From: an uncultured Rivularia sp.
Lineage (GTDB): Bacteria; Cyanobacteriota; Cyanobacteriia; Cyanobacteriales; Nostocaceae
Direction: 5' to 3'
Length of the DNA: 64,000 bases
Assembly (NCBI GenBank): GCA_963665115.1
Contig: OY762007.1
Coordinates: forward strand, 704,001-768,000
The notes below the pieces were generated by a model. The model did not search any database, was not told the origin of the DNA, and saw only the letters and a list, made by a program, of their open reading frames with translations. Of the stretch, positions 10,235-63,003 are shown piece by piece. The first letter of the stretch is position 1, and each line of letters begins with the position of its first letter. A program made the position numbers and the translations under genes.

Positions 10235-12232
10235 ATGAAAAACATTGTTGATGGCAGAATTAAGTTTGTTATTTACAATTTGTTAGGGCAAGAGAAAGCT
10301 TACTATATTGCAGACAAATTTGTTTTAAATAGTTTGAATATAGAAGAACCTTTGGCTATTGATTATAGTTATCAAGTTTTTCTATCTGAAGATGCAAAAA
10401 TAATTCAATGTACTGCGGGAATATTAAAAGTTAACAAGTTGCAGCCAGAAGATACGGGAATAATTTATAAATACAAGCCAATTAGCAAAGAAACCTTCAC
10501 GCAATTAGAAGTACCAGTTGTGCAAAATCATCAGGCTGTTTATGTTTTTGTAAAAGCTAATTTAGCTGAAGGTAATTTGAATATTGCCAAATATGCTTTA
10601 TTCAGTACTTTCAACGAAAAATTAATAGCAAAACACGCTCAAGCATTAACAAATCAGCAGCTTGCGAACTTTGAGCGCGATATTGAAACAGCAATATTTT
10701 CTTCTGAAGTAATGCAAGAATCGGGACTTATTCAGATGCGAGAAAATGACAGTATTTCTTTATTAGAACTGATTCAAATTTTAGAATCACATCGTCACAG
10801 CATTATCGTTAACTTGAAACACTTACGAGGAAATTATCAGTACAAAGGTGTAAAAAGGCTGAAAGGAAGTCGAGATATAAATGGGCAACTAATTAAACCT
10901 TGGCTGAAAACAGAATACATTGATAACGGTGATTATGTCGAAATGGGTTGCTTTGAAATGAACCGCAACACCGCTACGATAAATATGCTGGTAACTCATA
11001 AAGTTAAACTTGTAAAAACAGAAGATGAAACCCCAATTATCGAAATTGCAGGTTTATTAGCTAATGATTTGACTAGCTATAACAATTATACGATAGTTAG
11101 CGACGGTGAAATAAATATCAAATCGCTAAAGGTGAAAATTAGCAGTAAGAAAACCTTTGATTTATTAAAGCAAAAAGGTGTAATTACAGCAGAAACATTT
11201 GACTTCCGCACTTGCCATACAATTGATTTAGAATTACCGTTGGTACCGTTGAATGGAAAATACAGCAACATTGACGGTTTATTTGAGCGGTTAGCAGAAG
11301 TAAAAATCCTGACGAGCATCATTTCCGCGCATTTGAAACAAGAATCGGATGCTTTTGTACCCGAGCAATTGGATGAATTAAAAAAGCATTATTTATCTAA
11401 AAATCTTTATCTCAACTTTCCGACAACTAAAGCTGGAGGGGCGATCGATACGCGAATCAGCTATAAAATTGATATTGGAAATAAAGATGTTCTCAACTTG
11501 AGTAAACTTTATTCTGCAAATAAATTCTTAGAAAGAAGATATGAGGTTTACGATACTGAAACAGGAGAAATTTTTAGTAAACCAACCTTTGAAATGACTT
11601 TGAGAGAAAATATAGCCGTTCGTCAAAAGTCGCTTTCACCCAGGATGAAAATTAGCAAAGTTGATGAATTGATGAAGCCGATTTTTGATGATTTTTTGGG
11701 AATTGTAAGTAATGGGAAGGTTGCGGGGATTTTAGCGAAAGTTGGTCATATTTATAATGGTAGTAGTGGGAGCATCTTGCTCCCTAGATTTAATCAAAGC
11801 GAGCAAGATAAGGTTATTTCTCGCGAGCAAGATCGGGTTATTTCTAGCGAGCAAGATCGGGTTATTTCTAACGAGCAAGATCGGGTTATTTCTAGCGAGC
11901 AAGATGCTCGCACTACGATGAATGCGAAATTAGGAAAACAAGAAAAAATTACAGCGTTAACGGTAGCGAAAACGAAATTGGATGAATATGTAGAGAAGAT
12001 TTATCGGGATAGAATTTCACCTTTGGTATTTTATATTGGCTCCACCGGGCTTTTACCCGATGGCATGGAAGGGAAAGTTATGAGTGCAATTCAACTTGCA
12101 GCAAAATATCCGAATTTAAGTTTTTCAAAGGATGAGGGAGAAGGGTTATTTTTTGAAGTTGGTGATAGTTTGATTGGGGTTTATGAAAAGGTTGAGTGTT
12201 TTAGTCGGAAGGATTTAGTCGAAGTTGGGTAA
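10235..12232 (+). CDS. Hypothetical protein with an in-frame REP-derived repeat insertion
   Basis: 665-aa ORF; (SEQDRVIS)n block encoded within 11763-11916. Confidence 0.85.
   Translation: MKNIVDGRIKFVIYNLLGQEKAYYIADKFVLNSLNIEEPLAIDYSYQVFLSEDAKIIQCTAGILKVNKLQPEDTGIIYKYKPISKETFTQLEVPVVQNHQAVYVFVKANLAEGNLNIAKYALFSTFNEKLIAKHAQALTNQQLANFERDIETAIFSSEVMQESGLIQMRENDSISLLELIQILESHRHSIIVNLKHLRGNYQYKGVKRLKGSRDINGQLIKPWLKTEYIDNGDYVEMGCFEMNRNTATINMLVTHKVKLVKTEDETPIIEIAGLLANDLTSYNNYTIVSDGEINIKSLKVKISSKKTFDLLKQKGVITAETFDFRTCHTIDLELPLVPLNGKYSNIDGLFERLAEVKILTSIISAHLKQESDAFVPEQLDELKKHYLSKNLYLNFPTTKAGGAIDTRISYKIDIGNKDVLNLSKLYSANKFLERRYEVYDTETGEIFSKPTFEMTLRENIAVRQKSLSPRMKISKVDELMKPIFDDFLGIVSNGKVAGILAKVGHIYNGSSGSILLPRFNQSEQDKVISREQDRVISSEQDRVISNEQDRVISSEQDARTTMNAKLGKQEKITALTVAKTKLDEYVEKIYRDRISPLVFYIGSTGLLPDGMEGKVMSAIQLAAKYPNLSFSKDEGEGLFFEVGDSLIGVYEKVECFSRKDLVEVG
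11763..11916. repeat. Inverted GTAG-REP pair enclosing a 24-bp tandem array
   Basis: GTAGTGGGAGCATCTTGCTCCC ... (gcgagcaagatcgggttatttcta)x~4 ... GCGAGCAAGATGCTCGCACTAC. Confidence 0.9.
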
Positions 12233-12461
12233 GTAAGTATCGCCGTCACCGGCTTATGGGTGCGGTTACACAAACGAAGCCCACCTGCGTGGGCTATAGC
12301 CTGCGGAGGCAGGCTTTGTAATTGTAGCCCCAGCCTTCTAGGCTGAGGGCTTTTATGGTGTAATTCAAAATCCCCATATCCTTGACAAGTATTAAGAAAA
12401 CACAATATATCTGAAGCAGGGCACAATAGAGAAACATAAGAGCATAAAATGCCCGCGTACA

Positions 12462-13608
12462 ATGAGTTACTGTCTTAATCCAAATTGTCCAAATCCGCAA
12501 AATACGAATAGTGAAAAGTTTTGCTTGAGTTGTGGTTATAAGTTACTGCTCAAGGAGCGCTATCGGGCGATGAAACCTATAGGGCAAGGTGGTTTTAGCA
12601 GGACTTTTTTGGCTCGGGATGAAGATAAACCGTCTCTACCTCTTTGTGTAATTAAACAGTTTTATCCGCAAGCTCAAGGTACTAGTACTTTAGCTAAGGC
12701 GATAGAATTATTTAATCATGAAGCGATGCGTTTGGAAGAATTGGGCAAGCATCGACAAATACCCGAACTTTTAGCGTATTTTACTCAAGATGATAGACAA
12801 TATTTGCTGCAAGAATTTATTGATGGTTTGAATTTGGGGCAGGAATTACAGCAAAACGGGGTTTATAGTGAAACTCAAATTCAACACTTTTTAAATGAAT
12901 TGTTGAGAATTTTACAATTTTGTCATCAAAAACAAATTATTCATCGCGATATTAAACCCGAAAATATTATTCGTCGTCAAAATCCTACTAAGTTGAGGGG
13001 GCAAATTGTATTAGTGGATTTTGGCGCTTCTAAAGTTGTCACTCAAGCTTCCATGCAGCAAACGGGTACGAGTATTGGTAGCCCGGAATATGTAGCGCCG
13101 GAGCAGATGAGAGGAAGGGCGCTTTTTGCCAGCGATATTTACAGTTTGGGAGTTACCTGCATACATTTGTTAACAGGGCGATCGCCTTTTGATTTATACG
13201 ATATTAATAATGATGTTTGGCTGTGGCGAGATTATCTCCAAGCTAGCATTAATGTGGATTTGGGCAGAATATTAGATAAAATGATGGCGACTACTCCCGC
13301 ACGTCGCTATCAAACTGTAGATGAAGTATTAAGAGATTTGAATAAATTACCGACTTTGATTTCGCAAACTGGGAATGTTGTAAAGCCAGTTTCCCACACC
13401 ATCCAAACCAACTCCACCAACTATTGTTTCATCTTCTCCGAGTCAAATAGATAAGGAATTGGAAGAGATGAAAACAGTATTTATGAAAGGTAAAAAAGCT
13501 CTTAGTCAAAATTCAGCATCTTCTCAAGGTACGCCACAATCAGCAACGAATAGCAAAATAGATGATGAATTGGAAGAATTAAGAAAGAAGTATGGGAATA
13601 ATTCTTAG
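12462..13608 (+). CDS. Ser/Thr protein kinase with 4-Cys prefix domain; +1 frameshift near 13390-13395
   Basis: MSYCLNPNC..CLSCG, GQGGFS, HRDIKPEN, DFG, APE; removing one base extends the ORF through IDKELEEMK..IDDELEELRKKY to TAG at 13608. Confidence 0.9.
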
Positions 13609-13817
13609 GGAATGGGGCATTGGGTGTTAATACTTAAATTTTATCAAATATTATTTCTATAAAAGCTTTTATTAGAACATTAATACATACCGATTATAAG
13701 ATTTACTTCAGTAATTACCGTACAAGATAAAGTTTCAGTATTGTCTCGGTAATCTCTTGAGAATCCTATGGTTAGCATGAGTAGATAAATATGTGATTTA
13801 TTGAAATTGTTAATAGG

Positions 13818-15113: not shown

Positions 15114-15158
15114 TTTTATTTCAATTAAATAAAGGACATTTCAAAAGTCTTTAATATT

Positions 15159-15265: not shown

Positions 15266-15314
15266 ATTTGAAAAAGAAAGTAGAGAGCAGAAAGTAGAAA
15301 AAAGATTCATTTCC

Positions 15315-15514
15315 GTAGTGGGAGCATCTTGCTCCCTAACTACTAAAGAGCAAAATGTGCATTAACTCTAAAATTTCTTCCCTAACTACTAAAGAGCAAA
15401 ATGTGCATTAACTCTAAAATTTCTTCCCTAACTACTAAAGAGCAAAATGTGCATTAACTCTAAAATTTCTTCCCTAACTACTAAAGAGCAAAATGTGCAT
15501 TAACTCTAAAATTT
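15315..15514. repeat. Single GTAG-REP followed by four 46-bp tandem repeats
   Basis: REP at 15315; units start at 15334, 15380, 15426 and 15472. Confidence 0.9.
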
Positions 15515-18247
15515 ATTCACCAAATCCAACATCACCTGATGCATATCACTTCTGCCTTTATCTTGATACAATTCGGCAGCTTTTTGTAAATCGCTTTTCG
15601 CTCCTTGTTTATCCTGTAAATTATCGCGAAGTAAACCGCGCTTGTAATAAGCTGAAGGTAGATTTGCATCCAAATTTATTGCTTGATCAAAATCTTTCAG
15701 AGCAACTTGTTTATCAGTATTGCTGCGAATTATACCCCTTAATAAGTAACCTTGAGCAAGTTTTGGCTGTAAAGAAATAGCTTTATTAGCATCTGCGATC
15801 GCCCTTTGTTTTTCTCCTCTATCATGATAAACTCTACCTCTAACTACATAAGCTAAAGCTGCTTGAGAATTAATCTTTATCGCTTGATTGGCATCTTTAA
15901 TTGCCGCTTGTTTATTGCCGATACTGTAATAAGCCGAAGCTCTTTTCCAAAAGGCTTGGTCATTTTTAGGGTTAATTTCAACGGCTTTACTAAAGTCAGA
16001 AACAGCCATTTGTTTATTTTGTAAATCGTATTGCAGGCTTCCCCGATTAATAAAAGCTGATTCATCTTGAGGATTGATGGCAATTATTTGAGTATAATCT
16101 TCAACTGCTGCTTGATAATCCTTTTGTTTAATATGAGTAACTGCCCTTGCTAGATAAGCTGGAACATATTTAGGATTAATTTCAATCGACTTTGATAAAT
16201 CGGCAATAGCTTTCTGATAATTTTCCTGTTGCAAATAACTTAAACCGCGCCCTCCATAAGCGATATAATTTGTCGGTTTAATTTTAATCGCTTGGGAAAA
16301 ATCTGCGATTGCTCCTTGATAATCCTTTTGTGAAATGCGAAGAAAAGCCCTACCTTGATAAATATCGGGGTTTTGGGGTTGAATTGATAATCCTTGGCTA
16401 AAATCTTCTATTGCTCCCTGCTTATCTCCCAATTTATTGCGGATACCTGCTCGCATTCCATAAAATAAGGCATTTTTAGGATTAAGACTAATAGCTTTAT
16501 CAGCATCGGCTAAAGCACCTTTTTTATCTCCCAAATCAACGCGAATATTTGCCCGATGCATATAAGCGCTGGCATTCTCTGGGTTTTGATTAATCGCTTT
16601 CGTCATATCTGCCGCACCAGCAGCTTTATCTCCCATTGTAGAAAGAATTAAACCGCGACTTGAATATAAACTTGAATCTTGGGGATTGATGGCAATTGCT
16701 TGATTAATATCTACGAGTGCTTTCTGATAATCCCCTAATTGCCCATAACTAAGACTGCGTTGAGTATAAGCATAAAGATTTTTCGGAGACAGTTGAATTG
16801 CTTTGTTATAATCTCGAATTGCTTCTTGAATGTCTCCCGTGCGAAATAAAATACCGCCACGATTAATGTAAGCTTCAGCCGCTTCAGGTTGAATTGATAT
16901 CGCTTTATTTGCATCAGCTAAAGCTGCTTTGTAATCTCCTAATTCAATATAAATATAACCACGGGATGAATAAGCGCTAGCATTTTTAGAATTAAGACGA
17001 ATTGCTTTATCGAAATCCGCCAGCGCTCCTTCAAAATCAGCGACTTGTTGGCGTAAAGTACCCCTGCTTTCATAAGCATCGGAAGATTTAGGAGCAAGTT
17101 TAACAGCATAGTTAGCATCTGCAATTGCTTGTTTCAAGTTTGCTGTAGCTGCATGAAGAAAAGCTCGGAATGAATAATAAGAAGCTTCTTCGGGATTAAG
17201 TTTGATTGCTTGATTAACATCTTTAATAGCTGACGGAATTTTTTTTAATACAAAGTTAACCGAAGCACGACTCATGTAAGCAATTTCAGATTTAGGGTTT
17301 AACTTAATTGCTCGATTAGCATCACCCATTGCTTTTTTATATTCCCCAACTCTGAGATGAGCAAAGCTACGTTTTCCGTAAGCTGCTGAATATTTAGGCT
17401 TTAAACTGATAGCTCGGTTAAAATCTGTAATTGCAGCCTGCCAGTTATCATTTTTAGTGTTTTCTCCACCGCGTATAAAGTAATCATCTGCCGTTACCGC
17501 TTTGGCTATTTGAGGAGGTATTTTAATCCCTAAGTTAATACCTACTTCAGTTTGATTTTGTAAAAGCGTATTGATGGGAATTCCTAAATTAAATCCAGTT
17601 TTGATAAAAGCAATTTCAGGATTAACCGCAGAAACTTCGATATTATCTCGAATATCGGCTCTACCATGCACCCCAACTAATTCACCTTTATCGTTTAATA
17701 TTGCTCCACCGCTCATTCCCGGTAAGGTGTCGTTACTGTAAACCAACCCGTAACCATCCTTTAGCGGTTGGGAAGCATTTGCAGTAATTTCACCTTTAGT
17801 AAATGTATAAATTGAACGAGAAATCGCCGCCGTACTTTTAGGAAAACCAGCGATATAAGCCGTAGTGCCTTCTTGACAGGTATTGGAATCGCCGATTTTT
17901 GCAACTTGATAATTTTGATTGCTAGTAAATTCAGCAACAGCTAAATCAACTCCTTTAATTCGTTTGATACTGTTTTTATTAATTGGATAGCGTTGATTAT
18001 CCGGGCTAATAATTTCATAGTTATCTTGTCTTCCTACAACATGAGCGGCTGTAATAAAGGTGTAATTATTTCCTTGCTTTTTGATAATTACTCCGCTACC
18101 GTTGCTATTTGGGCTATTAACTAATACGGTGATTCCCTTCGCAATTTCGTTTACTCGCGGGGAAGATTGAGCATTAGTAATCTGTGGCTGTACTATTGCG
18201 ATTGATGTACCGATAAGTGTTGATGTAAGTAGATAGTTAAATTTCAT
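15506..18247 (-). CDS. Secreted trypsin-like serine protease with long TPR array
   Basis: Signal peptide, TAAHV / DLA / GMSGG triad, many 34-aa TPRs. Confidence 0.92.
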   Translation of the reverse strand: MKFNYLLTSTLIGTSIAIVQPQITNAQSSPRVNEIAKGITVLVNSPNSNGSGVIIKKQGNNYTFITAAHVVGRQDNYEIISPDNQRYPINKNSIKRIKGVDLAVAEFTSNQNYQVAKIGDSNTCQEGTTAYIAGFPKSTAAISRSIYTFTKGEITANASQPLKDGYGLVYSNDTLPGMSGGAILNDKGELVGVHGRADIRDNIEVSAVNPEIAFIKTGFNLGIPINTLLQNQTEVGINLGIKIPPQIAKAVTADDYFIRGGENTKNDNWQAAITDFNRAISLKPKYSAAYGKRSFAHLRVGEYKKAMGDANRAIKLNPKSEIAYMSRASVNFVLKKIPSAIKDVNQAIKLNPEEASYYSFRAFLHAATANLKQAIADANYAVKLAPKSSDAYESRGTLRQQVADFEGALADFDKAIRLNSKNASAYSSRGYIYIELGDYKAALADANKAISIQPEAAEAYINRGGILFRTGDIQEAIRDYNKAIQLSPKNLYAYTQRSLSYGQLGDYQKALVDINQAIAINPQDSSLYSSRGLILSTMGDKAAGAADMTKAINQNPENASAYMHRANIRVDLGDKKGALADADKAISLNPKNALFYGMRAGIRNKLGDKQGAIEDFSQGLSIQPQNPDIYQGRAFLRISQKDYQGAIADFSQAIKIKPTNYIAYGGRGLSYLQQENYQKAIADLSKSIEINPKYVPAYLARAVTHIKQKDYQAAVEDYTQIIAINPQDESAFINRGSLQYDLQNKQMAVSDFSKAVEINPKNDQAFWKRASAYYSIGNKQAAIKDANQAIKINSQAALAYVVRGRVYHDRGEKQRAIADANKAISLQPKLAQGYLLRGIIRSNTDKQVALKDFDQAINLDANLPSAYYKRGLLRDNLQDKQGAKSDLQKAAELYQDKGRSDMHQVMLDLVNKF

Positions 18248-18297
18248 TCTTATAGTTTTAAAAGTTGAGACAATGTAAAGGGAAGGGTAATTAATGA

Positions 18298-19492
18298 TTA
18301 CCGACTTCTTTGTCTTTTCGTCTGTTTCAAAATATAACTAGCTCGTCGTAAATCTTTAACTGCTCTTTCTTTTTTTCCCAATCTCAGATAACAAGAAGCC
18401 CTACCAATATAAGACACAGCAGCATAAGGACTTTTATTATCAAAAACTAATGCGATACTGAAATCAATAATAGAGCCTCTATAATCGCGCATCCGATTGC
18501 GAGCCATTCCTCTCTTGGTGTAAGCCTTAGAATTTTTCTTATTTATTCCTAATACTTTTGTGTAGCTCTCCTTAGCTTTCTGATAGCTCTTTAATTTATA
18601 AAAAGCATCTCCTAATTTCATATGAGCATCTTCATATTTCGGATTTAAGTTTACTGCTTTAGATAAATCGGTAACAGCAGCTTGATAATTATTATTTTTA
18701 AACTTGTTTCCTCCCTGAAGATAGAAATCATCGGCTTTGGGTTTTGTGGCAACGTTAGTAGGAAGTTTATTAACGTTAGGTTTAATATTCCCAGAAGCAT
18801 AAAGCTGCTTAAATGTATTAATAGGAACAGCCGCATTAAAACCAGTTTTGATAATAATATCGGGATTCATTTCGGATATCTGATAATTTTGAGTGGTATC
18901 TCCCCTACCGTGAATTCCAATTAATTCCCCTTTCTGATTCAATACCGGGCCACCACTCATTCCTGGTAAAGTATTGATAGTATAAATTAGAGTGTAACCT
19001 TCGTTTAAAGTTTCAGAAGCATTGGCGCTAATTCTGCCATCAAGGAAAGTGTAAGTCGATTGGGTAATTACTGCGGTGGGTTTAGGAAAACCAGCGACAT
19101 AAGCAGTAGTTTCCTTCAGTTGCGGTATCGGAATTACCAATCTTTGCCGCAGCATAATTATTATCATTAGTAAAATTCACAACCGCTAAATCAACATTTG
19201 GTAGTTTTTTGACACTACTAACAATATGACGTTGATTATCGGCAGTAACAATTTCGTATTTATCTTCTTTACCTACAACGTGAGCGGCTGTTAAAACGGT
19301 GTAGATATTACCAGATTTATTAATTATTACCCCAGAGCCATTACTATTCTTGCTGTTAATTGAAACAGTAATTTTCTTTGCTAATTGTGCAACCTGGGGT
19401 GAAGATTGCGCTTTTACAGATTGTGGCTGTATTAATGCGATTGATGTGCCAATTAATAGCGGTGAAAGTAGATGATTATATTTCACGATCAA
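18298..19492 (-). CDS. Trypsin-like serine protease-TPR protein, +1 frameshift at 19110-19112
   Basis: Removing one base restores EGTTAYVAGFP as in the paralogues; triad intact. Confidence 0.88.
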
Positions 19493-19507
19493 AACCCGAT
19501 TAAATTA

Positions 19508-20806
19508 TTAATTACTAGCTTTTTGTTTTAATTGCTCAAACAGATAATTACCATATTTTAGATCGGCAAGTCCCCCTTTTTTATCTCCAGAGCTAAAACG
19601 AGCAATTCCTCTACTTCCATAAGTAATAGCTGCAAGTCTGGTGTTTTTTTCAAATTGCAATACTCTGTTATAATCAGCAATTGCTTTTTTATAGTCTTTC
19701 AATTGATTCCAAGCAAGTCCCCTAATTAGATAGGTTTCGGAATTTACCGGATTAATTTTCAATGCTTGGGTATAGTCGGCGATCGCCCCTTTAATATCTT
19801 TGAAATTAGAGCGGCTGTATCCCCTTTTAATATAAGCTTCTTCATAGTTGGGATTTAATTTAATTGCTCGATTATAGTCGGCTATTGCATTTGAATAATT
19901 TCTTAAAAGCGAGTAGTTATAGCCTCTTTTAAGATATGCTTCTTCATAATTAGGATTTAATTTGATTGCTTGAGTATAATCATCAATTGCTCCTTGATAG
20001 TTTTGATTTTCAGACTTTTTACCACCACGAATGAAAAAGTCATCTGCTGTAAGTATGGAAGCCTGTTTTTCAGGTAAACTTATTCCTAAATCTACTCCGA
20101 CTTTAAGCGACTGTCGGATAAAAGTATTGATGGGAATTCCTAAATTAAAGCCACTCTTAATCACAGCAATTGCAGGATTTGCAGCAGAAACTTCAATATT
20201 AGTATCTCTAATATCTGCCCTGCCATGAATCCCAATTAATTCACCTTTTTGATTCAAAACTGCTCCACCGCTCATTCCCGGTAAAGTGTCGTTGCTATAC
20301 ACCAAACCGTAACCATCCTTTAGCGGTTGGGAAGCATTTGCAGTAATTTCACCCTTCGTAAAAGTATAAATTGAACGAGAAATCGCCGCAGTGGCTTGGG
20401 GAAAACCTGCAACAAAAGCCGTAGTACCTTCTTCGCTGCTATCGGAATTACCAACTTTAGCAACTGGATAATTTTTGTTACTAGTAAATTCAGCAACCGC
20501 TAAATCTACTCCTTCAACTTGTTTAACGCTGCTTTTATTAAGAGAATAACGTTGACTATCAAAAGTAACTATCTTATAATCATCTTGCTTTCTAAGTACG
20601 TGAGCGGCGGTTAAAAAAGTGTAAATATTGCCTTGCTTTTTGATAATTACTCCGCTACCGTTACTATTTGGACTATTTACTAATATAGTAATTTCCTTCG
20701 CAATTTTATTTACCTGATTTAATGCTTGTGCCGATACAACTTGCGGTTGTACAACTACAATTGATGTGCCAACAACTGCGGAAGAAAGTAAATAGTTAAA
20801 TTTCAT
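19508..20806 (-). CDS. Secreted trypsin-like serine protease with TPRs
   Basis: TAAHV, DLA, GMSGG; C-terminal TPRs. Confidence 0.92.
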   Translation of the reverse strand: MKFNYLLSSAVVGTSIVVVQPQVVSAQALNQVNKIAKEITILVNSPNSNGSGVIIKKQGNIYTFLTAAHVLRKQDDYKIVTFDSQRYSLNKSSVKQVEGVDLAVAEFTSNKNYPVAKVGNSDSSEEGTTAFVAGFPQATAAISRSIYTFTKGEITANASQPLKDGYGLVYSNDTLPGMSGGAVLNQKGELIGIHGRADIRDTNIEVSAANPAIAVIKSGFNLGIPINTFIRQSLKVGVDLGISLPEKQASILTADDFFIRGGKKSENQNYQGAIDDYTQAIKLNPNYEEAYLKRGYNYSLLRNYSNAIADYNRAIKLNPNYEEAYIKRGYSRSNFKDIKGAIADYTQALKINPVNSETYLIRGLAWNQLKDYKKAIADYNRVLQFEKNTRLAAITYGSRGIARFSSGDKKGGLADLKYGNYLFEQLKQKASN

Positions 20807-20873
20807 GCGGTAAATTCTTAAGTTTAATATCTTTGTTAAGATGCAGCACCCGATAATTGAACTGAATTAATAA

Positions 20874-22817
20874 TTACTGAATTACGCTGATTAGAGTCTT
20901 GATATTAGATATAAAATTTGTATTTCCCTGCTGTCGAGCAAGATTTTCAGCTTTCCTAAAATTTTCGGCAGCCCCTTGTTTATCATCTTGAGAAGCGCGT
21001 TCAAATCCTTTATATAGGTAAAGGTTAACATCATTAGCAGCATACTGAATCGCTTTGTTAATATCCGCAATTGCCCCTGACTTATTTTCCTGTTTAATGC
21101 GTATCAATGCACGGAAAAAATAAGCTTGATCCTGCGAGGGATCTAAACGTAAACTTTGGTTGAAATCCGTTAATGCTTTCTGAAAATCCTTTTTTAAAAA
21201 CAGAATTTTTGCTCGGCTTGCGTAAGCGCTAGCATAATTAGGATTAATATTGATTGCTTGGTTGTAGTCTGTGAGAGCTTTTAGAGCATCTCCATTTGCT
21301 GCGTAAGCATCTCCCCGCAAATTGTACATTTCGGCATCTTCGGGATTAACTTGAATTGCTTTTGTAAATGAATTAATTGCTGCTGGATAATTATTTGATA
21401 CATTAAATGCGAAGCCTTCAGAACCATATGCATAAGCTTGATTGCCTTGAGCAGCAAATAGTTTTGAGGCTTTTTGTACATTAGCAATTGCTTTTTGTAT
21501 GTCTCCAAAATTGTAATGGACAACACCAAGAATTAAATAAGGAAATGCATAATTAGGAGCAATGCTAATCGCTTTATTTACATCGGCGATCGCACTTGTT
21601 TTATCTTGAAGTTTTAAGTGCGTAAAAGCTCTACCCATATAGGCATAAGCATCGCTCGGTTGCAGTGACAAACTCTTGTTATAATCAGCGAGCGCTCCCT
21701 TTAAATCTCCCGAATTTAAGCGAGTCATTCCCCTTTCGTTATAAGCATCGGTATCTTTGGGATTAAGTTGAATCGCTTGAGAAAAAGCTGCAATTGCTTT
21801 TGGATAATCTTTTTGCAGCATCCGCATCGAACCTTGGCTTCTAAAAGCATCTCCCTTATTACCTTGTGCGGCAAATAATTCAGCAGCTTTTTGTAAATCC
21901 CCAATTGCCTTTTCCGGCTCCCCAATATTTTGTCTAGCTTCAGCACGACGGTAATAAGCAAAAGCATATTTAGGATTAATACGAATAGCTTGATTTAAAT
22001 CTGTTATAGCTCCTTGAAAATCTGCTTTATTCCGTTTTTCCACACTTTGTAGATAAAAATCATCCGCTTTAGGTTTTGTTGCAATATTTGGTTTTGTCGA
22101 TGTCGCTGTATTTGAAGCCGTTTTAAACAACTTTGTAAAAGTACTAATAGGAATACCTAAATTTCTACCAGTTTTGATAATAATATTGGGATTAACATCA
22201 GAAATATTAAAATTTTCCATAGTATCTCCCCTACCGTGAATTCCCACTAATTCACCCTTTTCATTTAATACCGGGCCACCACTCATTCCCGGAAAAGTAT
22301 CAATACTGTAAACTAAAGAATAGCCATCGCGTAAAGACTTAGAAGCATTAGCAATAATACGCCCATCCATAAAAGTATAAAGCGCATTAGAAACTGCCGC
22401 AGTAGGCTTAGGAAAACCAGCCACATAAGCAGTAGTACCTTCTGTAGAGTTATTCGGATTACCTATTTTCGCAGTAGCATAATTTTGATTGCTGTTAAAT
22501 TTAACAACAGCCAAATCAACATCTTTTAATGGTTTAATATTGCTTTTATTTAAACTGTATCGCTGCCCATCAGAAGTAACAATATTGTAATCGCTCGTAC
22601 CTCTAACCACATGAGCAGCAGTAAGAACAGTATAAGTTGTTCCAGAGCGATCGATAATTACACCACTACCAGGACTATTTTTATTATCAATTAAAACAGT
22701 AATTTCCTTAGCCATCTTCGCCACCTCAGCAGAAGATTGAGCCACAGCAAACTGCGGTTGCACCAACACAGTTGATACCGTTATCATCACCGGAGAAATT
22801 GCATAATATAGCTTCAT
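20874..22817 (-). CDS. Secreted trypsin-like serine protease with TPRs
   Basis: Start MKLYYAISP (the upstream extension is STRR); triad intact; TPRs. Confidence 0.92.
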   Translation of the reverse strand: MKLYYAISPVMITVSTVLVQPQFAVAQSSAEVAKMAKEITVLIDNKNSPGSGVIIDRSGTTYTVLTAAHVVRGTSDYNIVTSDGQRYSLNKSNIKPLKDVDLAVVKFNSNQNYATAKIGNPNNSTEGTTAYVAGFPKPTAAVSNALYTFMDGRIIANASKSLRDGYSLVYSIDTFPGMSGGPVLNEKGELVGIHGRGDTMENFNISDVNPNIIIKTGRNLGIPISTFTKLFKTASNTATSTKPNIATKPKADDFYLQSVEKRNKADFQGAITDLNQAIRINPKYAFAYYRRAEARQNIGEPEKAIGDLQKAAELFAAQGNKGDAFRSQGSMRMLQKDYPKAIAAFSQAIQLNPKDTDAYNERGMTRLNSGDLKGALADYNKSLSLQPSDAYAYMGRAFTHLKLQDKTSAIADVNKAISIAPNYAFPYLILGVVHYNFGDIQKAIANVQKASKLFAAQGNQAYAYGSEGFAFNVSNNYPAAINSFTKAIQVNPEDAEMYNLRGDAYAANGDALKALTDYNQAININPNYASAYASRAKILFLKKDFQKALTDFNQSLRLDPSQDQAYFFRALIRIKQENKSGAIADINKAIQYAANDVNLYLYKGFERASQDDKQGAAENFRKAENLARQQGNTNFISNIKTLISVIQ

Positions 22818-22952
22818 TTTTTTATCCTTAATAGAATTGGGAATTGGGCATTGGGCATTGGGCATTGGGCATTGGGAATAGTTGAGAGTAGTGAGTTAGG
22901 AGTTAGGAGTTAGGAGTTAAGAGTTAGAAATTATAAAATTAGGAGTTAATAG

Positions 22953-23795
22953 TCAGTTATTGTCTCCTTGTCTCCCCATCCCCATGCCCCATCCCCAATC
23001 CCCCATGCCCAATCCCCCATGCCCAATCCCCATTACCTTCCCCATCGGCACCGCCCAACTCAAACGCACAATCTTTTCATGCAAAGCCTTATCAACTTCC
23101 TCTCCCGACTCGAATACCGAAGGAATATCCCACAAAGGAAAAGCGTGCATTCCATTGACACCAACAACTTCACCGCTCTGATTCAATAAAGCACCACCGC
23201 TCATTCCCTTTTGAATATCGTTGGTGTAACCAATTTGATATCCTCCCTGTAAAGCCTTGTCTAAAATCAAAGAAACTTTACCAGTAGTTAACAAAAACTT
23301 GACACGACTACCAGCTTCAACAATCGGAAATCCGGCGGCAACGACTTCCGCACCTACTTTTGGCTTCACCCCAATAGATGGAATGGTATAAACTTCACCT
23401 TTGCTGCGAAACTGCAATATTGCTAAATCATCACCCTTCTCAGAAGCAACATATTTAGTCTCGGCTTTCCAAATCTTGCTATCTGAAGTTTGAATTTGAT
23501 AGGGAGCTTTGCCCGCTCGCAATACATGGGCATTCGTCACCACCGTGTAAACGCAACCCTGTTTTTTTAGTAGAAATCCCGTGCCTATAATCTCAGGTGC
23601 CATCACCTTTACAGAAATATTTTCCGCTCTTTGCTGTAGCTGTTGTGGTGACAATATTGATGGTTTTACTTGAGAAGTTTGCTCCTCACAGCTATTACTA
23701 TCGCTTCTAGCCGAAACAGTACAGCATAAATTTGACACAGACAGCACAACTAGTAAAAAACTAAAACAGCCGATATTCCATTTGCGCCATAGCAT
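22953..23795 (-). CDS. Trypsin-like serine protease without TPRs
   Basis: TNAHV, DDLA, GMSGG; C-terminus runs into STRR. Confidence 0.88.
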   Translation of the reverse strand: MLWRKWNIGCFSFLLVVLSVSNLCCTVSARSDSNSCEEQTSQVKPSILSPQQLQQRAENISVKVMAPEIIGTGFLLKKQGCVYTVVTNAHVLRAGKAPYQIQTSDSKIWKAETKYVASEKGDDLAILQFRSKGEVYTIPSIGVKPKVGAEVVAAGFPIVEAGSRVKFLLTTGKVSLILDKALQGGYQIGYTNDIQKGMSGGALLNQSGEVVGVNGMHAFPLWDIPSVFESGEEVDKALHEKIVRLSWAVPMGKVMGIGHGGLGMGDWGWGMGMGRQGDNN

Positions 23796-33287: not shown

Positions 33288-34766
33288 GTTTCCATCCCCG
33301 TTGAGGGGAATAGGTTTGGAAAGCTGCTGCTTTCACGTCTGAGCCCAAATATGTGATCGTTTCCATCCCCGTTGAGGGGAATAGGTTTGGAAAGTACTTG
33401 CAAGGTGCTTCGTAAAGTTTGCACAAGAAAAGTTTCCATCCCCGTTGAGGGGAATAGGTTTGGAAAGGAGGGAATGTACGGCAAAGCCGTATGGGTGCTA
33501 GATGGTTTCCATCCCCGTTGAGGGGAATAGGTTTGGAAAGAATAAAAAATTTAGAGAAGAAGTAGCAAATTCATGTTTCCATCCCCGTTGAGGGGAATAG
33601 GTTTGGAAAGGATTATCGGTCACTCAAATAGATCCAGTAGGAATGTTTCCATCCCCGTTGAGGGGAATAGGTTTGGAAAGATAATATTGAAAGAAGATGG
33701 CGATTTTACAAATAAGGTTTCCATCCCCGTTGAGGGGAATAGGTTTGGAAAGACGCTGCTTTAGGTTTCGCTGCTGGTGTTGCTTTAACGTTTCCATCCC
33801 CGTTGAGGGGAATAGGTTTGGAAAGTGGTTTGAACGAAAGAAAATATGCTATTATCTGTGGGTTTCCATCCCCGTTGAGGGGAATAGGTTTGGAAAGAAG
33901 GAAATTATATTTTTCTTGCAAAAAAGCAATAGAGTTTCCATCCCCGTTGAGGGGAATAGGTTTGGAAAGTTGTAAGAGTTTCGTGTGAAGATCCTAATAC
34001 GAAACGTTTCCATCCCCGTTGAGGGGAATAGGTTTGGAAAGTTTTCGTATCTAACTGCCCAAAAAGGTGTGTATGTTCCGGTTTCCATCCCCGTTGAGGG
34101 GAATAGGTTTGGAAAGGTTGAAAAAGTTCTCCCAGGAGAGCTTATATTAAAAGTTTCCATCCCCGTTGAGGGGAATAGGTTTGGAAAGAGGAGTAGAAGT
34201 TGCAAAAGCTGACAGTGCACCAGGTAGTTTCCATCCCCGTTGAGGGGAATAGGTTTGGAAAGGAAGGGTCTAAATTGTTTAAGTAAAACAACTAGAAAGG
34301 TTTCCATCCCCGTTGAGGGGAATAGGTTTGGAAAGAGAAAAGAAGTAAGCCTAAAGCTCCAAGAAGAAAGTTTCCATCCCCGTTGAGGGGAATAGGTTTG
34401 GAAAGAATAAACCTGCAGAAGCTAATACCAAAGAATGGGTGTTTCCATCCCCGTTGAGGGGAATAGGTTTGGAAAGAATTCATACAGTTAGTAACGACTA
34501 CATGGATTATGTTTCCATCCCCGTTGAGGGGAATAGGTTTGGAAAGTGCCCCATGCATTCTGGAAAACCTTTCGTTGGAGAAAGAGTTTCCATCCCCGTT
34601 GAGGGGAATAGGTTTGGAAAGTGTAAGAGTCAATTTGAACTCTTCCATATTTCTGCCAGTTTCCATCCCCGTTGAGGGGAATAGGTTTGGAAAGAAGCAT
34701 CTAATAATTCTGTTTTTGTAGGACTTTAATGTTTCCATCCCCGTTGAGGGGAATAGGTTTGGAAAG
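33288..34766 (-). CRISPR. CRISPR array, 21 identical 36-bp repeats and 20 spacers (34-39 bp), type III-like repeat
   Basis: Minus-strand repeat CTTTCCAAACCTATTCCCCTCAACGGGGATGGAAAC with CCCC/GGGG hairpin before an 8-nt ATGGAAAC handle; leader on the right. Confidence 0.98.
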
Positions 34767-47523: not shown

Positions 47524-47777
47524 GTAGTGCGAGCATCTTGCTCGCTGTAAATAAAAATCTTACTCGCGATTTCTAAAAATCCTGCTTACTGTAAATAAAA
47601 ATCTTACTCGCGATTTCTAAAAATCTTGCTCGCTGTAAATAAAAATCTTACTCGCGATTTCTAAAAATCCTGCTTACTGTAAATAAAAATCTTACTCGCG
47701 ATTTCTAAAAATCCTGCTCGCTGTAAATAAAAATCTTGCTTGCTGTAAATCAATAGGGAGCGAGACGCTCCCACTAC
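47524..47777. repeat. Inverted GTAG-REP pair enclosing a 44-bp (2x22) tandem array
   Basis: Units start at 47546, 47590, 47634, 47678 and 47722. Confidence 0.9.
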
Positions 47778-50347: not shown

Positions 50348-50353
50348 ATTGGT

Positions 50354-50500: not shown

Positions 50501-50559
50501 ATTTAATTACATCGATTTATTTATTCGTTACTTTGTCTTCAACCCCTAACTATTTACCT

Positions 50560-55076: not shown

Positions 55077-56945
55077 CCATAACAGCAGAAGTCCCACATC
55101 TGACCGTCGTCGGCAGTGTGGGATGAATGCGAGTGAGACGACGACTATATTCCTGACCAATGCGTAGCGAGGGAAGGAATATGTGGAGGAGACGAACACT
55201 ATTCGGGCTTTTGTTGACCTTCGATGTATTTTCGTAAAGTTGATATAGTGACACCGCCACAACTAGCCACAAAATAAGAACCGCTCCAAAATACATCCTT
55301 CCAGTATATTTTTGATAAATACTCAGAGAATTCCTGACGTAATTTTCTGGAAGACACTGACTTAAGATTATTGACTAATTTACTTAGTTCTAAGTCCGGA
55401 TGATATTGAAAAAGACAGTGTATATGGTCTTCTTCGCCGTTAAACTCTATAAGCTTGCAATCCCACTTGAGTAACAATTCCTCGATTATGACGTGAAGCC
55501 TTTCTAACATCTCACCAGTAAAGGCTTTGCGCCTATATTTTGTGACTAAAACTAAATGCACTTTCAAGTCACTGACAGAACGTCCTTTAGAAAAAAAATC
55601 ATTTTTCACAGTAGTTTCGGAATATTTATAAAGTTTGGTGTATACTTATATGGTAACACTAATTAAATAACAAGGAGGTGATGAACAAGTGCGAACAAGC
55701 TATCAATACCGATTAAAGCCTAATAAAGAGCAACGTGAAATTATTGATCACACGTTAGATATGTTGCGTTGTCAATATAACTATGAATTAGCTCAAAGAT
55801 TTGATTGGTACGAGCAGAATCGATGCTCTATTGACAGGTGTCCTCTTGTTTGTCATCTTCCAGAATTAAAAGACCAACCTAACCGTTTTAGTCAGCAAGC
55901 ATCATTAAAGCAGCTCAAAAAAGAACGTTCTTGGTACAAAACTATTCACAGCCAAGTATTGCAGGAGGTTCCTAAAAAGGTTGAGATTGCATTTGATAGA
56001 TGGTTCAAAGGTGATTGTAACGGTAAAAAATCTGGTAGACCAAGATTTAAAGGTGTAGGACAATATAAGACTTTTACTTATCCTCAATTCAAGCAACATC
56101 ACTTTGTTGGTAATAAAATTACCTTGTCAAAAATTGGAGATGTAAAAGTAATTGTTCACCGTCCTATACCGGATGGTTTTGCTATAAAAACCGTATCAGT
56201 TACTAAAAAGGTAAACGGTTATTATGTAACTCTAAGCCTTGAGAATAAAGAAGCTCCAACGATTAAGCCTGATTTCAATGCGGATAATATTGTCGGCATT
56301 GATGTTGGATTGATTGATTTTTATGTAGCTTCTGATAATACCCGAATTGCTGCGCCAAAACATCTCCGTAAAGCTGAACGTAAATTAAAGTCAGCACAAC
56401 GCAAAGTATCGCGTAGAGAGAAAGGTTCCAAACGTAGTAAGATAGCTATTAAACAATTAGGTATTAGACATAAAAAAGTAGCTGATACCCGTAAAGATTT
56501 CCACTTCAAAACAGCTAAAAAATTGCTATCTAAATATGATGTAATTGCTGTTGAAAAGTTGAATGTCAAAGGACTTGCCAAGTCTCGATTGGCTAAGTCT
56601 ATACATGATGCCGGATGGAGTCAGTTTGTAAATATACTTTCATTCAAAGCCGAAAATGCTGGGCTGAAAGTAATAGCTGTTTCTCCAAACGGTACAAGCC
56701 AAGAATGTTCTAGTTGCGGTCACGTAGTGAAAAAGCCGTTATCCCAAAGAATGCATAACTGCCCGGTATGTCATACCAGTATTTGCAGGGATTGGAATGC
56801 GGCTATAAATATCAGGAATCGTGGGACGCACGACCTGTATAAACAAGCTCAGCGGAGTCGGAGACACTCCGCCTCCGGTCAATGTCTTCAAAGAAGAGTC
56901 GCTGAGAAGCCCGCACTCACCCGAAGGGGAGTGAGGGTACGTCAC
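55077..56945 (+). mobile_element. IS200/IS605 family element with divergent tnpA and tnpB (left boundary +/- a few bp)
   Basis: Left hairpin tcccaca..tgtggga; right end GAAG-cccgcactc..gagtgaggg-tacg-TCAC. Confidence 0.85.
55199..55609 (-). CDS. tnpA: IS200/IS605 Y1 transposase TnpA
   Basis: HLVLVTKYRR, DHIH, FWSGSYF, KYIEGQ. Confidence 0.95.
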   Translation of the reverse strand: MKNDFFSKGRSVSDLKVHLVLVTKYRRKAFTGEMLERLHVIIEELLLKWDCKLIEFNGEEDHIHCLFQYHPDLELSKLVNNLKSVSSRKLRQEFSEYLSKIYWKDVFWSGSYFVASCGGVTISTLRKYIEGQQKPE

Positions 56946-56957
56946 GAGAAAGGGTAA
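55689..56957 (+). CDS. tnpB: TnpB RNA-guided nuclease, canonical
   Basis: GIDVG, AVEKL, CSSCG/CPVC zinc finger, RDWNAA. Confidence 0.95.
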   Translation: MRTSYQYRLKPNKEQREIIDHTLDMLRCQYNYELAQRFDWYEQNRCSIDRCPLVCHLPELKDQPNRFSQQASLKQLKKERSWYKTIHSQVLQEVPKKVEIAFDRWFKGDCNGKKSGRPRFKGVGQYKTFTYPQFKQHHFVGNKITLSKIGDVKVIVHRPIPDGFAIKTVSVTKKVNGYYVTLSLENKEAPTIKPDFNADNIVGIDVGLIDFYVASDNTRIAAPKHLRKAERKLKSAQRKVSRREKGSKRSKIAIKQLGIRHKKVADTRKDFHFKTAKKLLSKYDVIAVEKLNVKGLAKSRLAKSIHDAGWSQFVNILSFKAENAGLKVIAVSPNGTSQECSSCGHVVKKPLSQRMHNCPVCHTSICRDWNAAINIRNRGTHDLYKQAQRSRRHSASGQCLQRRVAEKPALTRRGVRVRHEKG

Positions 56958-57945: not shown

Positions 57946-59040
57946 GTGACCTTAAGCCTGTCTGCTGTAAAATCTCATCGCCAACCTTGGCAGGGATTAA
58001 TTGAACAGTATCGCCAATACTTGCCCGTCAGTGAAAATACGCCGGTTGTTACGCTTTTTGAAGGTAATACACCTTTAATTCCCGTGCCATCAATTGCGCG
58101 TCTAATCGGCAAGCAAGTACGTGTTTTTGTGAAATACGATGGTTTGAACCCTACTGGTAGCTTCAAAGATAGGGGAATGACAATGGCGGTTTCTAAAGCG
58201 AAGGAAGCTGGGGCTAAGGCTGTGATTTGCGCGAGTACTGGTAATACTTCGGCAGCAGCAGCAGCTTACGCTAGGCGCGGAGGGATGCGTCCTTTTGTAA
58301 TCATTCCCGATGGTTATGTGGCGCTGGGTAAATTGGCGCAAGCGTTGGTGTATGGTGCGGAAGTACTGGCAATTAAAGGAAATTTTGACGATGCTTTGGA
58401 AATTGTCCGGGATATAGCCGAGGAATATCCGGTAACTTTGGTTAATTCGGTTAACCCTTACCGTTTGGAAGGACAAAAAACTGGGGCTTTTGAAGTAGTA
58501 GATATTTTGGGTGATGCTCCAGACTGGCTGTGTATTCCGGTTGGCAATGCGGGTAATATCACGGCCTATTGGATGGGTTTTTGTCAATATCATCAAGATG
58601 GTAAATGTGGACGTTTACCCAAGATGATGGGTTTTCAAGCTGCGGGTGCTGCTCCTTTGGTAAATGGTGGAGTTGTGAAGAATCCGGAAACCTTAGCTAC
58701 AGCAATTAGAATTGGTAATCCTGCAAGTTGGGATAAAGCAGTAGCGGCTGCTGCGGCGAGTAAAGGTGAATTCAACTCCGTTACCGATGAAGAAATTTTA
58801 GAAGCTTATCGAATTTTGGCTGGGGATGAAGGCGTTTTTTGCGAACCAGCGAGTGCGGCTTCTGTGGCAGGTTTATTAAAGGTAAAAGATCGAGTTCCCA
58901 CAGGTGCAACTGTAGTTTGTGTATTAACTGGTAATGGATTGAAAGATCCAGATACAGCAATTAAACATAATAAAAGTCAGTTTACCCAAGGTATTGAAGC
59001 GGATATTAAAACTGTTGCCAAGGTGATGGGGTTTGAGTAA
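57946..59040 (+). CDS. thrC: Threonine synthase
   Basis: [10 protein letters not shown] (PLP Lys), [22 protein letters not shown]. Confidence 0.97.
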
Positions 59041-59103
59041 GGCTCGTAGTTGCGCGGTGACTCGCCTCTTAACCGGAAGCGCTAAAGCGCAACTACGAAC
59101 AAA

Positions 59104-61024: not shown

Positions 61025-61478
61025 GCTGTGTTTTCAGTTGGTGATGCTAGAACTTTATTGATTTTACAGCTAATGAATTATAGTGATTATTTTTGAAAAG
61101 CGAGAAGATGTAATTGTTTCGTTTATTAGAAGAATACCGATCAAAAAACCGATACTAGACGCAGAGTACGCAGCGAAAAGAAATAAAGAGCTTAAGCCCA
61201 CGTGCAGAAAATTAAAAAACCACAATTTTTCAAAAAAACAGGTTCCTTAATAGCTCAAATTATTACAACTCATATAAAATTGCTATAGAAACCTTCATAT
61301 TTGAAATACTGCTCGTTTTCACAAAAGCGCGTAAATCTTTGCGTGCAATTGCTGGCTTCAGGCAGCTTGGAGTTAAACTTAAAACGATAATTAAAAGAAA
61401 ATCTTTCCGCATATAGTGTTATAACTATTTGGATTAAATTTTTGAGCCAAGAAAGATGAGTAGTAATTATAGATAATA

Positions 61479-61823
61479 ATGGAAGCTGTAAAAAAAAGAC
61501 CCATCAAACCCAAATCCTATATATCGTTCCTCTATATCTACTCAACTAACTGGGGAACTGCCGGTGATATTTGTTTAATCCGCGAAACTGTAGCTGAAGA
61601 GAGTACTTCTAAATTCGTGGGTCGCAAAGTCAAATTAGCCCTTCCGAGAGGAATGGAAAAGCATCGCGTGGAAGGTTATCAGGTAATCAAAGTTGCAGGT
61701 CATGTCGGTGAGGGACATCCCAAAGATCCTGGTTCCGAATGGGAAGCTTATGAAGGTATAGAGCGAGAAGTTGCGACCGCAGTTCTGAAGCCTTGGGGAT
61801 TTAAGTTAGTTGAGCCAGAGTAA
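61479..61823 (+). CDS. Hypothetical protein
   Basis: 114-aa ORF with ATG start and protein-like composition. Confidence 0.75.
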   Translation: MEAVKKRPIKPKSYISFLYIYSTNWGTAGDICLIRETVAEESTSKFVGRKVKLALPRGMEKHRVEGYQVIKVAGHVGEGHPKDPGSEWEAYEGIEREVATAVLKPWGFKLVEPE

Positions 61824-61845
61824 AGCTTGTCAGGGCAATTTCCAA

Positions 61846-62466
61846 CTAATTAACCGGATGTTGCCCATAAAAAGGTAAAGCTTCCGTCCATTCCGGACGC
61901 TTCCCCTGCTGCCAATCCAAATGCGCCAATTGCAGCATACTCGTTACCGTCGCAGCTAAACCAGAGTTAGCTTCCAAAAGCCGATAATTACCATTCCAAT
62001 CGGCTAATTTTTCTTCCCATATTTCTGGGGTTAATACCACATCAGTCATTACAACCGATAATCCGCTACCATCCGGCATAACTTGGTAAATCGCACCATA
62101 CAACATACCTCGTTGCGCTGGCATTTGTACGGCAATAAAATTATCATCATCAACCCGGTTTTCCCAAGCAAATGCTGCCAAAGTAGAAACCGCAAACACC
62201 GGAATATTCAATTGTTGTCCTAAAGTACGAGCAGCCACAACCCCGATACGAGTTCCCGTAAAACCCCCAGGTCCCTTCGCTACAGCAATAAAAGCCATAT
62301 CAGCCCAAGTTTGAGGTTTAACAAAATCTATTAAATATTGATGCATTAAATTAGAAACATTACGGTCTAATTTCCATACATCAGAACGCGAGTCATCAGC
62401 GAAATTACTGATAGATAAACCTAATTCGGGAGTTGTGGTGTGTAGCGCGAAAGCGTATTTAGGCAT
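61846..62466 (-). CDS. tsaB: tRNA threonylcarbamoyladenosine biosynthesis protein TsaB
   Basis: ALHTTT, IAVAKGPGGFTGTRIG, ALPFY; upstream ORF extension is STRR. Confidence 0.93.
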   Translation of the reverse strand: MPKYAFALHTTTPELGLSISNFADDSRSDVWKLDRNVSNLMHQYLIDFVKPQTWADMAFIAVAKGPGGFTGTRIGVVAARTLGQQLNIPVFAVSTLAAFAWENRVDDDNFIAVQMPAQRGMLYGAIYQVMPDGSGLSVVMTDVVLTPEIWEEKLADWNGNYRLLEANSGLAATVTSMLQLAHLDWQQGKRPEWTEALPFYGQHPVN

Positions 62467-62537
62467 TGGGAATGGGGAATGGGGCATGGGGAATTGGGAA
62501 TTGGGCATTGGGCATCCCAATTATTGAAAAATATATC

Positions 62538-63003
62538 GTAGTGGGAGCGTCTCGCTCCCTTGATATATATAGCGAGCAAGATACCTATATATAGCGAGCA
62601 AGATGCTTATATATATAGCGAGCAAGATACCTATATATAGCGAGCAAGATGCCTATATATATAGCGAGCAAGATGCCTATATATATAGCGAGCAAGATAC
62701 CTATATATATAGCGAGCAAGATACCTATATATATAGCGAGCAAGATGCCTTGATATATATAGCGAGCAAGATACCTATATATATAGCGAGCAAGATGCCT
62801 ATATATATAGCGAGCAAGATGCCTTGATATATATAGCGAGCAAGATGCCTTGATATATATAGCGAGCAAGATGCCTATATATATAGCGAGCAAGATACCT
62901 ATATATATAGCGAGCAAGATGCCTATATATATAGCGAGCAAGATACCTATATATATAGCGAGCAAGATGCCTATATATATAGCGAGCAAGATGCTCGCAC
63001 TAC
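62538..63003. repeat. Inverted GTAG-REP pair enclosing an 18-unit array of 22-26 bp
   Basis: (AGCGAGCAAGATRCC + (TA)n filler) x18 including the terminal REP. Confidence 0.92.

Follow-up and report, generated by a model that had tools for sequence, protein, structure and literature searches.

The window analysed here is a stretch of 64,000 nucleotides (nt) from the closed 8.69-Mb genome of an uncultured Rivularia sp. (assembly GCA_963665115.1, contig OY762007.1, positions 704,001 to 768,000; G000:C1:704001-768000 in the notation used below for this genome and its relatives). At four places it contains an array of short tandem repeats that adjoins a repetitive extragenic palindromic element (REP). 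The REP consists of a GTAG tag, one base and a hairpin with a 7-bp stem and a 3-nt loop, which is the layout of GTAG-type REPs, where a short GC-rich hairpin comes after a 5' GT[AG]G tag. Nine exact copies lie in the window, where shuffled sequence gives 0.03 matches at up to three mismatches, and 297 in the genome. As befits GTAG REPs, the family is mostly extragenic, with 23 of its 394 members located within open reading frames (ORFs) of at least 150 aa. The arrays are polar minisatellites, the unit of which is the 3' part of the REP together with a few bases of the local flank.

All four arrays were found where a first-pass annotation of the sequence had placed them (Table 1). It had also taken the REP to bound each array, which is true of the four sites; at sites 1 and 4, however, the array starts in a minus-strand REP at the far end, and the copies at 11763 and 62538 are passive partners. 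In the three arrays enclosed by an inverted REP pair, the unit begins inside one REP and continues into the DNA 3' of that REP on the GTAG strand. The proposed unit lengths of 24, 46 and 22-26 bp hold, whereas at site 3 the basic repeat measures 22 bp instead of 44; two variants alternate there, giving higher-order periods of 44 and 88 bp. Nor is the filler, i.e. the part of the unit beyond the REP arm, unique to the locus at three sites and flanking DNA at the fourth only, as had been supposed: at each of the four it is the local 3' flank. The filler of sites 3 and 4 is similar to the spacer that separates the two REPs (read directly). The unit at site 2 combines the last 4 nt of the REP with a 42-nt piece of host DNA that contains the stop codon of a TPR/trypsin gene (15506-18247). 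Array 1 encodes SEQDRVIS-type peptide repeats in an ORF that has no match in Pfam or NCBIfam, and array 4 is located upstream of a TsaD-family (PF00814) ORF.

Table 1. REP copies, arrays and the host ORF of site 1, in window coordinates
Feature	Position	Strand	Remarks
Host ORF of site 1	10235..12232	+	665 aa; site 1 lies in a variable loop of its product
Seeding REP, site 1	11895..11916	-	GTAG tag and 7-bp stem, TCT loop; array begins at REP position 11
Array 1	11798..11905	-	24 bp x 4.5; 3' arm and 12 nt of ancestral coding flank; in frame; enclosed by 11763+/11916-
Partner (inverted) REP closing site 1	11763..11784	+	
Seeding REP, site 2	15315..15336	+	single REP
Array 2	15333..15518	+	46 bp x 4.0; 2-nt microhomology
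Seeding REP, site 3	47524..47545	+	
Array 3	47535..47750	+	22 bp x 9.8; 3' arm and spacer-like filler; enclosed by 47524+/47777-
Partner (inverted) REP closing site 3	47756..47777	-	
Seeding REP, site 4	62982..63003	-	
Array 4	62563..62994	-	22-26 bp x 17.9; 3' arm and AT-rich spacer; enclosed by 62538+/63003-
Partner (inverted) REP closing site 4	62538..62559	+	
REP copy without array	4485..4506	-	
REP copy without array	5925..5946	-	

When a uniform array detector was applied to the genome, arrays of partial units were found on the 3' side of 36 of the 394 family members and on the 5' side of none (0/394). These represent 33 distinct arrays, and the 33:0 polarity has a binomial p of 2e-10. 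The final run kept tag-containing units, so that 5' arrays could not be hidden, and an earlier run that excluded them gave the same polarity for this family. Random sites have arrays in 5/1500 cases; REPs of six other families have them at 10/915 on the 3' side and 2/915 on the 5' side. The enrichment at this REP, for which the first-pass annotation had proposed a genome-wide check, is accordingly confirmed (p=2e-20 versus random sites, 9e-12 versus other REPs). In a first pass with Tandem Repeats Finder, 50 of the 297 exact copies adjoined a long-unit array, the figure for random sites being 1.7%, and a separate count of direct repeats at 325 REPs detected 32 downstream copies of the 3' part versus one doubtful upstream copy of the 5' part. 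In other genomes, repeats of the tag without the 3' arm amount to 4/47 (31 genomes) and 1/5 (11 genomes), to be compared with 365 arm-pair matches, some of which are whole-REP or inverted-partner matches. The annotation had held that other REP families have no arrays. This is so within the window but not genome-wide, where the GTAGAGACG family has arrays at 8/340 members on the 3' side and 1/340 on the 5' side. Since this family and other REPs also show some arrays, the REP studied here is strongly, though not uniquely, affected.

The genome is rich in short tandem repeats, and it might be thought that an assembly artefact or chance proximity produced the association. No read spanning array 4 was seen, and in the contigs of the sequencing runs only pieces of this array are found, none of them spanning it. 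On the other hand, the unit junction of site 2 is present as a 62-nt contig at about three times the depth of the flanks in two sequencing runs (650 versus 220; 204 versus 66.5), which possibly represent the source sample. Since a three-fold depth is what three junctions predict, the array at site 2 is not an assembly artefact. Moreover, the units carry patterned variants, the same arrays recur with other copy numbers in independently assembled relatives, and the enrichment is far beyond chance. An artefactual or fortuitous origin is scarcely credible.

What gives the arrays their direction? The folding energy of the hairpin is nearly equal on both strands (-8.2 versus -8.3 kcal/mol), which excludes unequal hairpin stability. 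The direction of transcription or replication is likewise excluded: arrays lie on both strands (21 plus, 15 minus) and in sense, antisense, convergent and divergent gene settings roughly in the proportions of all REPs, and convergent pairs issue from two REPs of one locus (G000:930592/930815; also in G013). Because two arrays converge within one locus, neither process sets the polarity. The GC skew showed no replichore usable for a direct test of replication direction. The tag is the only asymmetry left, and a tag-reading protein is therefore indicated.

The first-pass annotation had anticipated a cognate REP-associated tyrosine transposase (RAYT), and one was found, outside the window. The genome has ten Y1-transposase matches, one of which has this REP and the same half-REP arrays on either side. 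Its product (G000:C1:4654831-4655277, 149 aa) has intact HUH and Tyr motifs and scores 102 bits with NF047646, the cut-off being 80; a paralogue with 59% identity is not flanked by this REP. A single-copy RAYT gene with both motifs, flanked by its cognate REP, is the hallmark of REP/RAYT systems, and the element is a member of this kind. The motifs DHVH, WQ and YIRQNP agree with those of TnpA-REP subclass 2.7 ([ND]HVH, WQ, YI[LR][NQ]NP) as tabulated by Quentin 2018 (PMC6006769, Table 1), an assignment by motif. Like the enzymes of that subclass, for which the text of PMC6006769 mentions neither biochemistry nor the formation of arrays, the RAYT is cyanobacterial and flanked by GTAG REPs, but it is shorter than the tabulated median of 213 aa. 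The window itself contains two IS200/IS605-type tnpA and tnpB pairs (7821-9740, 55199-56957). Their tnpA genes (7821, 55199) were dismissed as candidates for the cognate enzyme, since they have no abundant tagged repeats at their flanks and adjoin tnpB. Other RAYT-like genes adjoin other REP families (G000:C1:786427-786846, 2099571-2100005, 2547746-2547949). The family beside the first of these has 3' arrays at 0/202 members, and array formation therefore differs between RAYT/REP pairs.

Of the 26 other genomes of the genus, 4 have an intact orthologue of the RAYT, while the gene is partial in G008 and broken in G001. This REP flanks the orthologue loci that were examined, and most of these also have arm arrays. 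Across the order, this REP followed by an arm repeat was detected in 10/301 genomes, belonging to 7/122 genera. Inspection confirmed half-REP arrays in G074, G146, G163, G226, G314, G149 and G056, whereas G192 and G093 have whole-REP or partner matches only. Five array-bearing genomes outside the genus (the first five of those just listed) were searched for RAYTs. Each has an orthologue (63-72% identity) flanked by 2-6 tags, while only 3 of the 25 other RAYT-family loci in these genomes have any tag. The REP-RAYT pairing thus recurs in families f14 and f27, which makes three families in all. Within 74 loci of distant RAYT homologues (26-42% identity, mostly Verrucomicrobia), a search confined to the loci themselves revealed a truncated repeat at two and a clear array at none. 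By eye, distant homologues in Verrucomicrobia and one Phycisphaerales apparently have short palindromes as their boundaries and lie inside housekeeping genes or between the two halves of such a gene. In family f14 (loci L393-L452 of G314, G146, G163 and G226) the REP often sits within flanks that are conserved on both sides, which suggests a larger element or a preferred target repeat.

About 45 REP copies of G000 carry an insertion of 24-45 bp at a fixed position of the 5' stem, including copies beside the RAYT gene (C1:4655330-4655800). Three of the 45 still seed arrays. Insertions of this kind resemble small dispersed repeats.

The geometry of the joins was studied on 87 junction events in other families, taken from 60 stretches hand-picked among 142 matches and from loci returned by searches. 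With whole-REP units excluded beforehand, all 87 start at REP positions 2-16, with a concentration at 7-14, in and near the loop and the upper 5' stem. In 36 of the 87 (30 unique) the local flank has been duplicated completely. In 35 of these 36 clean events the unit length is 16-26 nt, with a mean of 20.4 and a standard deviation of 2.4 (29 unique events, one 34-nt event omitted), and the start and end of the unit co-vary (rho 0.56, permutation p=0.004, all 30). Microhomologies of 0, 1, 2 and 3 or more nt were observed in 14, 8, 6 and 2 of the 30 events versus 17.4, 8.8, 2.9 and 1.0 expected, a distribution that does not differ from chance (p=0.16).

These data bear on repeated slippage triggered by the hairpin, which the first-pass annotation had proposed as one option and which is taken here as replication slippage without the help of a protein. 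No new component is needed for this, mean microhomology is slightly above chance (1.06 versus 0.60 nt), some arrays start at long direct repeats formed by the REP and a loop-inverted partner, and arrays persist in genomes without a detected RAYT. However, such slippage would be expected to build arrays at either end of the REP; with a hairpin of the same stability on the two strands, ordinary slippage cannot give 33:0. It also predicts longer microhomology than the 0-1 nt found in 22 of the 30 clean duplications. Clear bounding direct repeats and a lack of strand polarity, which characterize classical slippage, are not what is seen, and other GC-rich REP hairpins have arrays in 0-2% of cases versus 9% here. 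Protein-free slippage is thus an improbable origin of the arrays, while it is very likely the driver of their later expansion.

A second possibility starts from a nick that the RAYT would make in the tag strand, within the hairpin or close to it; a host polymerase would then displace the protein-capped 5' end by about 20 nt, and the new 3'-OH would resolve the phosphotyrosine link. This would be a short-range form of the amplification model published for bacterial interspersed mosaic elements (BIMEs), as set out in the legend of Fig. 7B of PMC3333891. It explains both the polarity and the homology-free joins, and according to the text of PMC3479197 any 3'-OH could in principle resolve the link. 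Furthermore, the base after the REP foot is T in 327 of 341 copies, which fits a C|T specificity, and starts show a local peak at the C|T of the loop (position 14, 11/87). The unit ends are less accommodating. On the top strand, C|T is compatible with the REP end in 6/36 clean events and with the flank end in 5/36; both ends are compatible with C|T or C|A, the RAYT-type cleavage sites, in only 5/36. C|T within 3 nt after the end is found in 7/30 events versus 6.8 expected, i.e. without enrichment. Zero-homology joins have C as their 3' base in 2 of 14 cases, whereas the text of PMC8266576 states that the E. coli enzyme required a 3' C, and in one identical flank the ends are nested between +6 and +13. 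Given the lack of C|T enrichment at the ends, nick-primed copying, which the annotation had also considered, is not supported as a process between canonical RAYT sites, and the nick-and-displacement scheme as a whole appears unlikely.

Alternatively, a host hairpin nuclease might cut the looped-out hairpin of the tag strand near the 5' side of the loop and nick the opposite strand about 20 nt away, fill-in and ligation then producing the duplication. SbcCD-type nucleases do cut near hairpin tips. The clustering of starts at the top of the 5' stem and in the loop would be in line with this, and fill-in would yield homology-free joins of fairly constant length. The polarity would nevertheless still call for a tag-specific factor, and we consider this route very improbable.

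It is also conceivable that the RAYT inserts a 5'-truncated piece of a REP, or of an inverted REP doublet forming a hairpin (REPIN), from another locus a few bases 3' of a resident REP, and that slippage then expands the direct repeat formed by the two arms. The last arm of site 1 is followed by a spacer and the partner REP, both of which are absent in single-REP relatives. In several two-arm loci the flank of the second arm is unrelated to the filler, and at many f14 loci one filler has two different flanks. However, insertion from elsewhere cannot yield duplications of the local flank, which are complete in 36 of the 87 events, and site 2 duplicates host coding DNA; truncated insertion therefore probably covers a subset only and, as a general explanation, is distinctly unlikely. 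An origin of the filler upstream of the REP was rejected, the upstream sequence being unlike the junction inserts in the 39 cases read.

Comparison of copy numbers between relatives, as the annotation had advised, showed that they vary, orthologous sites holding 0, 1, 2, 5 or 14 arms. At site 1, relatives have no REP, a single REP with the same filler as array 1 (G001, G016, G005), two arms (G003, G007) or 14 arms (G004). The length of the insert is a multiple of 3 in 16 of the 17 anchored orthologues; one of the 18 is unanchored, and the lone non-multiple has a one-base anchor gap. Site 2 is a true tandem duplication, its unit being single-copy in G001, G003 and G007, the REPs of which are without two bases of the tag region. 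The elements of sites 3 and 4 are absent in 5/5 relatives. At the loci of eight more arrays of G000, five relatives have founder states with two arms, one arm alone, a different array or no REP at all; since these loci were picked for having arrays in G000, the comparison gives no rates. Because orthologous sites show these successive states, the order of events is REP insertion, founding duplication and then lineage-specific expansion. Over 54 arrays, the terminal unit is the most diverged (p=0.012).

Coding repeats do arise in this way, as the annotation had claimed. Where arrays lie inside long ORFs, the period is a multiple of 3 in every case (4/4). Besides array 1, three arrays in long open frames (G000:C1:6549158, 3276097 and 2218444, with periods of 27, 24 and 18) give peptide repeats such as KPSERDSYI and FNTTSEQE in putative genes. 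In orthologues of the site 1 loop (L014-L031), unrelated repeats have been taken up in G013, G009 and G017, always in frame, and this protein loop is a repeat-insertion hotspot.

Tandem amplification of REPs as such is known. The texts of the articles concerned describe tandem BIMEs of varying number with models for their amplification (Ton-Hoang 2012, PMC3333891; Nunvar 2010, PMC2817692), REP singletons or dimers reiterated with flanking DNA (Di Nocera 2013, PMC3733652) and tandem REPIN/REP clusters in Pseudomonas fluorescens SBW25 (Bertels and Rainey 2011, PMC3116915; PMC3337134). Our system resembles E. coli BIME-2 or atypical BIMEs in its GTAG-tagged REP and in its single-copy RAYT gene flanked by that REP; here too, tandem copies are alike within a locus and their number varies between strains. 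The units differ. Those of E. coli BIMEs pair a whole REP with an inverted one, and the text of PMC3333891 models them as joins between C|T cuts, whereas the units described here are without the tag and 5' arm, measure about 20 nt, occur only 3' of an intact REP and end off C|T. Whole-REP tandem units do exist in G000 as a separate class (9 REP copies, e.g. G000:2220268 and 6550289), comparable to the clusters and head-tail dimers of GTAG REPs in PMC3733652; the text of that article, as distinct from its figures, deals with whole elements and with neither truncated arms nor polarity. As with SBW25 REPINs, there are inverted doublets with the tags outside (spacers mostly of 8, 9 or 12 nt), and three of the window arrays lie inside doublets. 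Unlike REPINs, most copies are singlets, only about 47 of 341 having an inverted partner at up to 37 nt; singlets seed arrays, and the repeated unit is not a REPIN.

Truncated one-sided arrays go unmentioned in the text of PMC8266576, PMC6006769, PMC3686654, PMC3184786 and PMC2884548, and in that of 10.1101/2024.07.17.603846, 10.1101/2022.05.22.493013 and 10.1101/2020.03.09.984088. More generally, no description of polar half-REP arrays was met with in the literature searched, a statement that concerns text as opposed to figures and supplements and that leaves the small dispersed repeat families of cyanobacteria uncompared. The annotation had regarded the pattern as undescribed. Because tandem amplification of whole REPs and BIMEs has been described (PMC3333891, PMC3733652), this holds for the half-REP, one-sided form of about 20 nt only. 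This variant, in which half-REP arrays are polar, obey a length rule and depart from the C|T model, is apparently undescribed.

We tentatively favour, with a confidence that falls just short of even, an origin of the arrays in which the cognate RAYT holds the REP looped out during synthesis while the 3' tail re-primes further back. The RAYT would bind the tag strand only, in the manner of the E. coli enzyme in vitro: according to the text of PMC3479197, TnpA-REP binds the REP and not the inverted (complementary) strand. The newly made tag strand would loop out the hairpin (17 nt) or the hairpin and tag (22 nt), whereupon a short 3' tail would fall out of register and re-prime about 17-23 nt back. 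The first duplication would thus form with little homology, and the unit start would move with the end, as in the clean events. Once two arms are present, the same event in perfect register, or ordinary slippage, could expand and homogenize the array. RAYT catalysis may be dispensable for the loop-out step. Such a model accounts for the polarity, the starts in the hairpin, the short fillers and the weak homology without C|T ends.

Several observations weigh against this loop-out model. Extension by a polymerase from a nearly unpaired primer end is chemically demanding. The pattern used to collect junctions needed the last 8 nt of the arm, so that late starts were invisible, and in G000 starts do reach REP positions 18-21. 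The length rule is broken by the 46-nt unit of site 2 and by 13-nt units; it is not seen in G074 alone (n=7), the units of G000 are longer (median 24), and those of the GTAGAGACG family measure 15, 15, 15, 26, 36, 68 and 75 nt. As many as 39 of the 87 events end within the filler, their junction bases being absent from the present flank. Such endings require either decay or some further event; part of them are terminal copies that have decayed, and others have the look of units transferred from locus to locus. In 15/36 events the REP end is compatible with C|T on the opposite strand (position 9), partly via repeated units, which allows for a model with cleavage. For growth at the REP end no support was found, since the first two units resemble each other no more closely than internal pairs do (p=0.79, 54 arrays). 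Finally, the correlation with the RAYT is imperfect. A REP followed by an arm repeat occurs in 159/1448 cases in 5 genomes with an intact RAYT gene versus 45/876 in 20 genomes without (G008, with its partial gene, and G015, with one REP and overlapping matches, were left out), a difference of about two-fold that is noisy, drawn from non-independent kin and based on matches that include whole-REP units. Indeed, G004 has an arm repeat at 15 of 122 REPs and the 14-arm array, and no RAYT orthologue was found in its 150 contigs.

Other features of the window are recorded here as separate observations. Two REP copies without arrays belong to composite elements of about 170 bp (~4400-4560 and 5800-5990), which hold this REP and a loop-variant partner, lie on either side of an IS630-type transposase pair (4559-5748; DDE_3, HTH_32) and look duplicated around it. 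The region 15506-23795 contains a cluster of four trypsin-like peptidase genes, three of them with TPR repeats, adjoining a COP23-family gene. A CRISPR-like array occupies 33288-34766, with 21 exact copies of a 36-nt repeat that has its only array in the genome there; no cas genes were detected among the neighbouring ORFs scanned.

For the multiplication of REPs by RAYTs in vivo, published accounts, as far as their text goes, offer models. The arrays are naturally formed reaction products in large number, with ends that can be mapped and that do not fit the published cut-and-join rule, and their one-sided duplications of about 20 nt are a direct readout for RAYT action in vivo. In addition, they reveal a source of minisatellites in bacteria and of novel coding repeats. 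For the host the arrays may be neutral by-products; for the investigator they are usable as variable number tandem repeat (VNTR) markers for these cyanobacteria. A further-reaching and, on present evidence, rather doubtful proposal is that a domesticated RAYT serves as a strand-specific hairpin clamp, which forces homology-free one-sided duplications of about 20 nt and so acts as a minisatellite generator independent of C|T cleavage. If this is true, a RAYT of this sort would, at tagged sites numbering in the hundreds, give rise to novel VNTRs and to peptide repeats that stay in frame.

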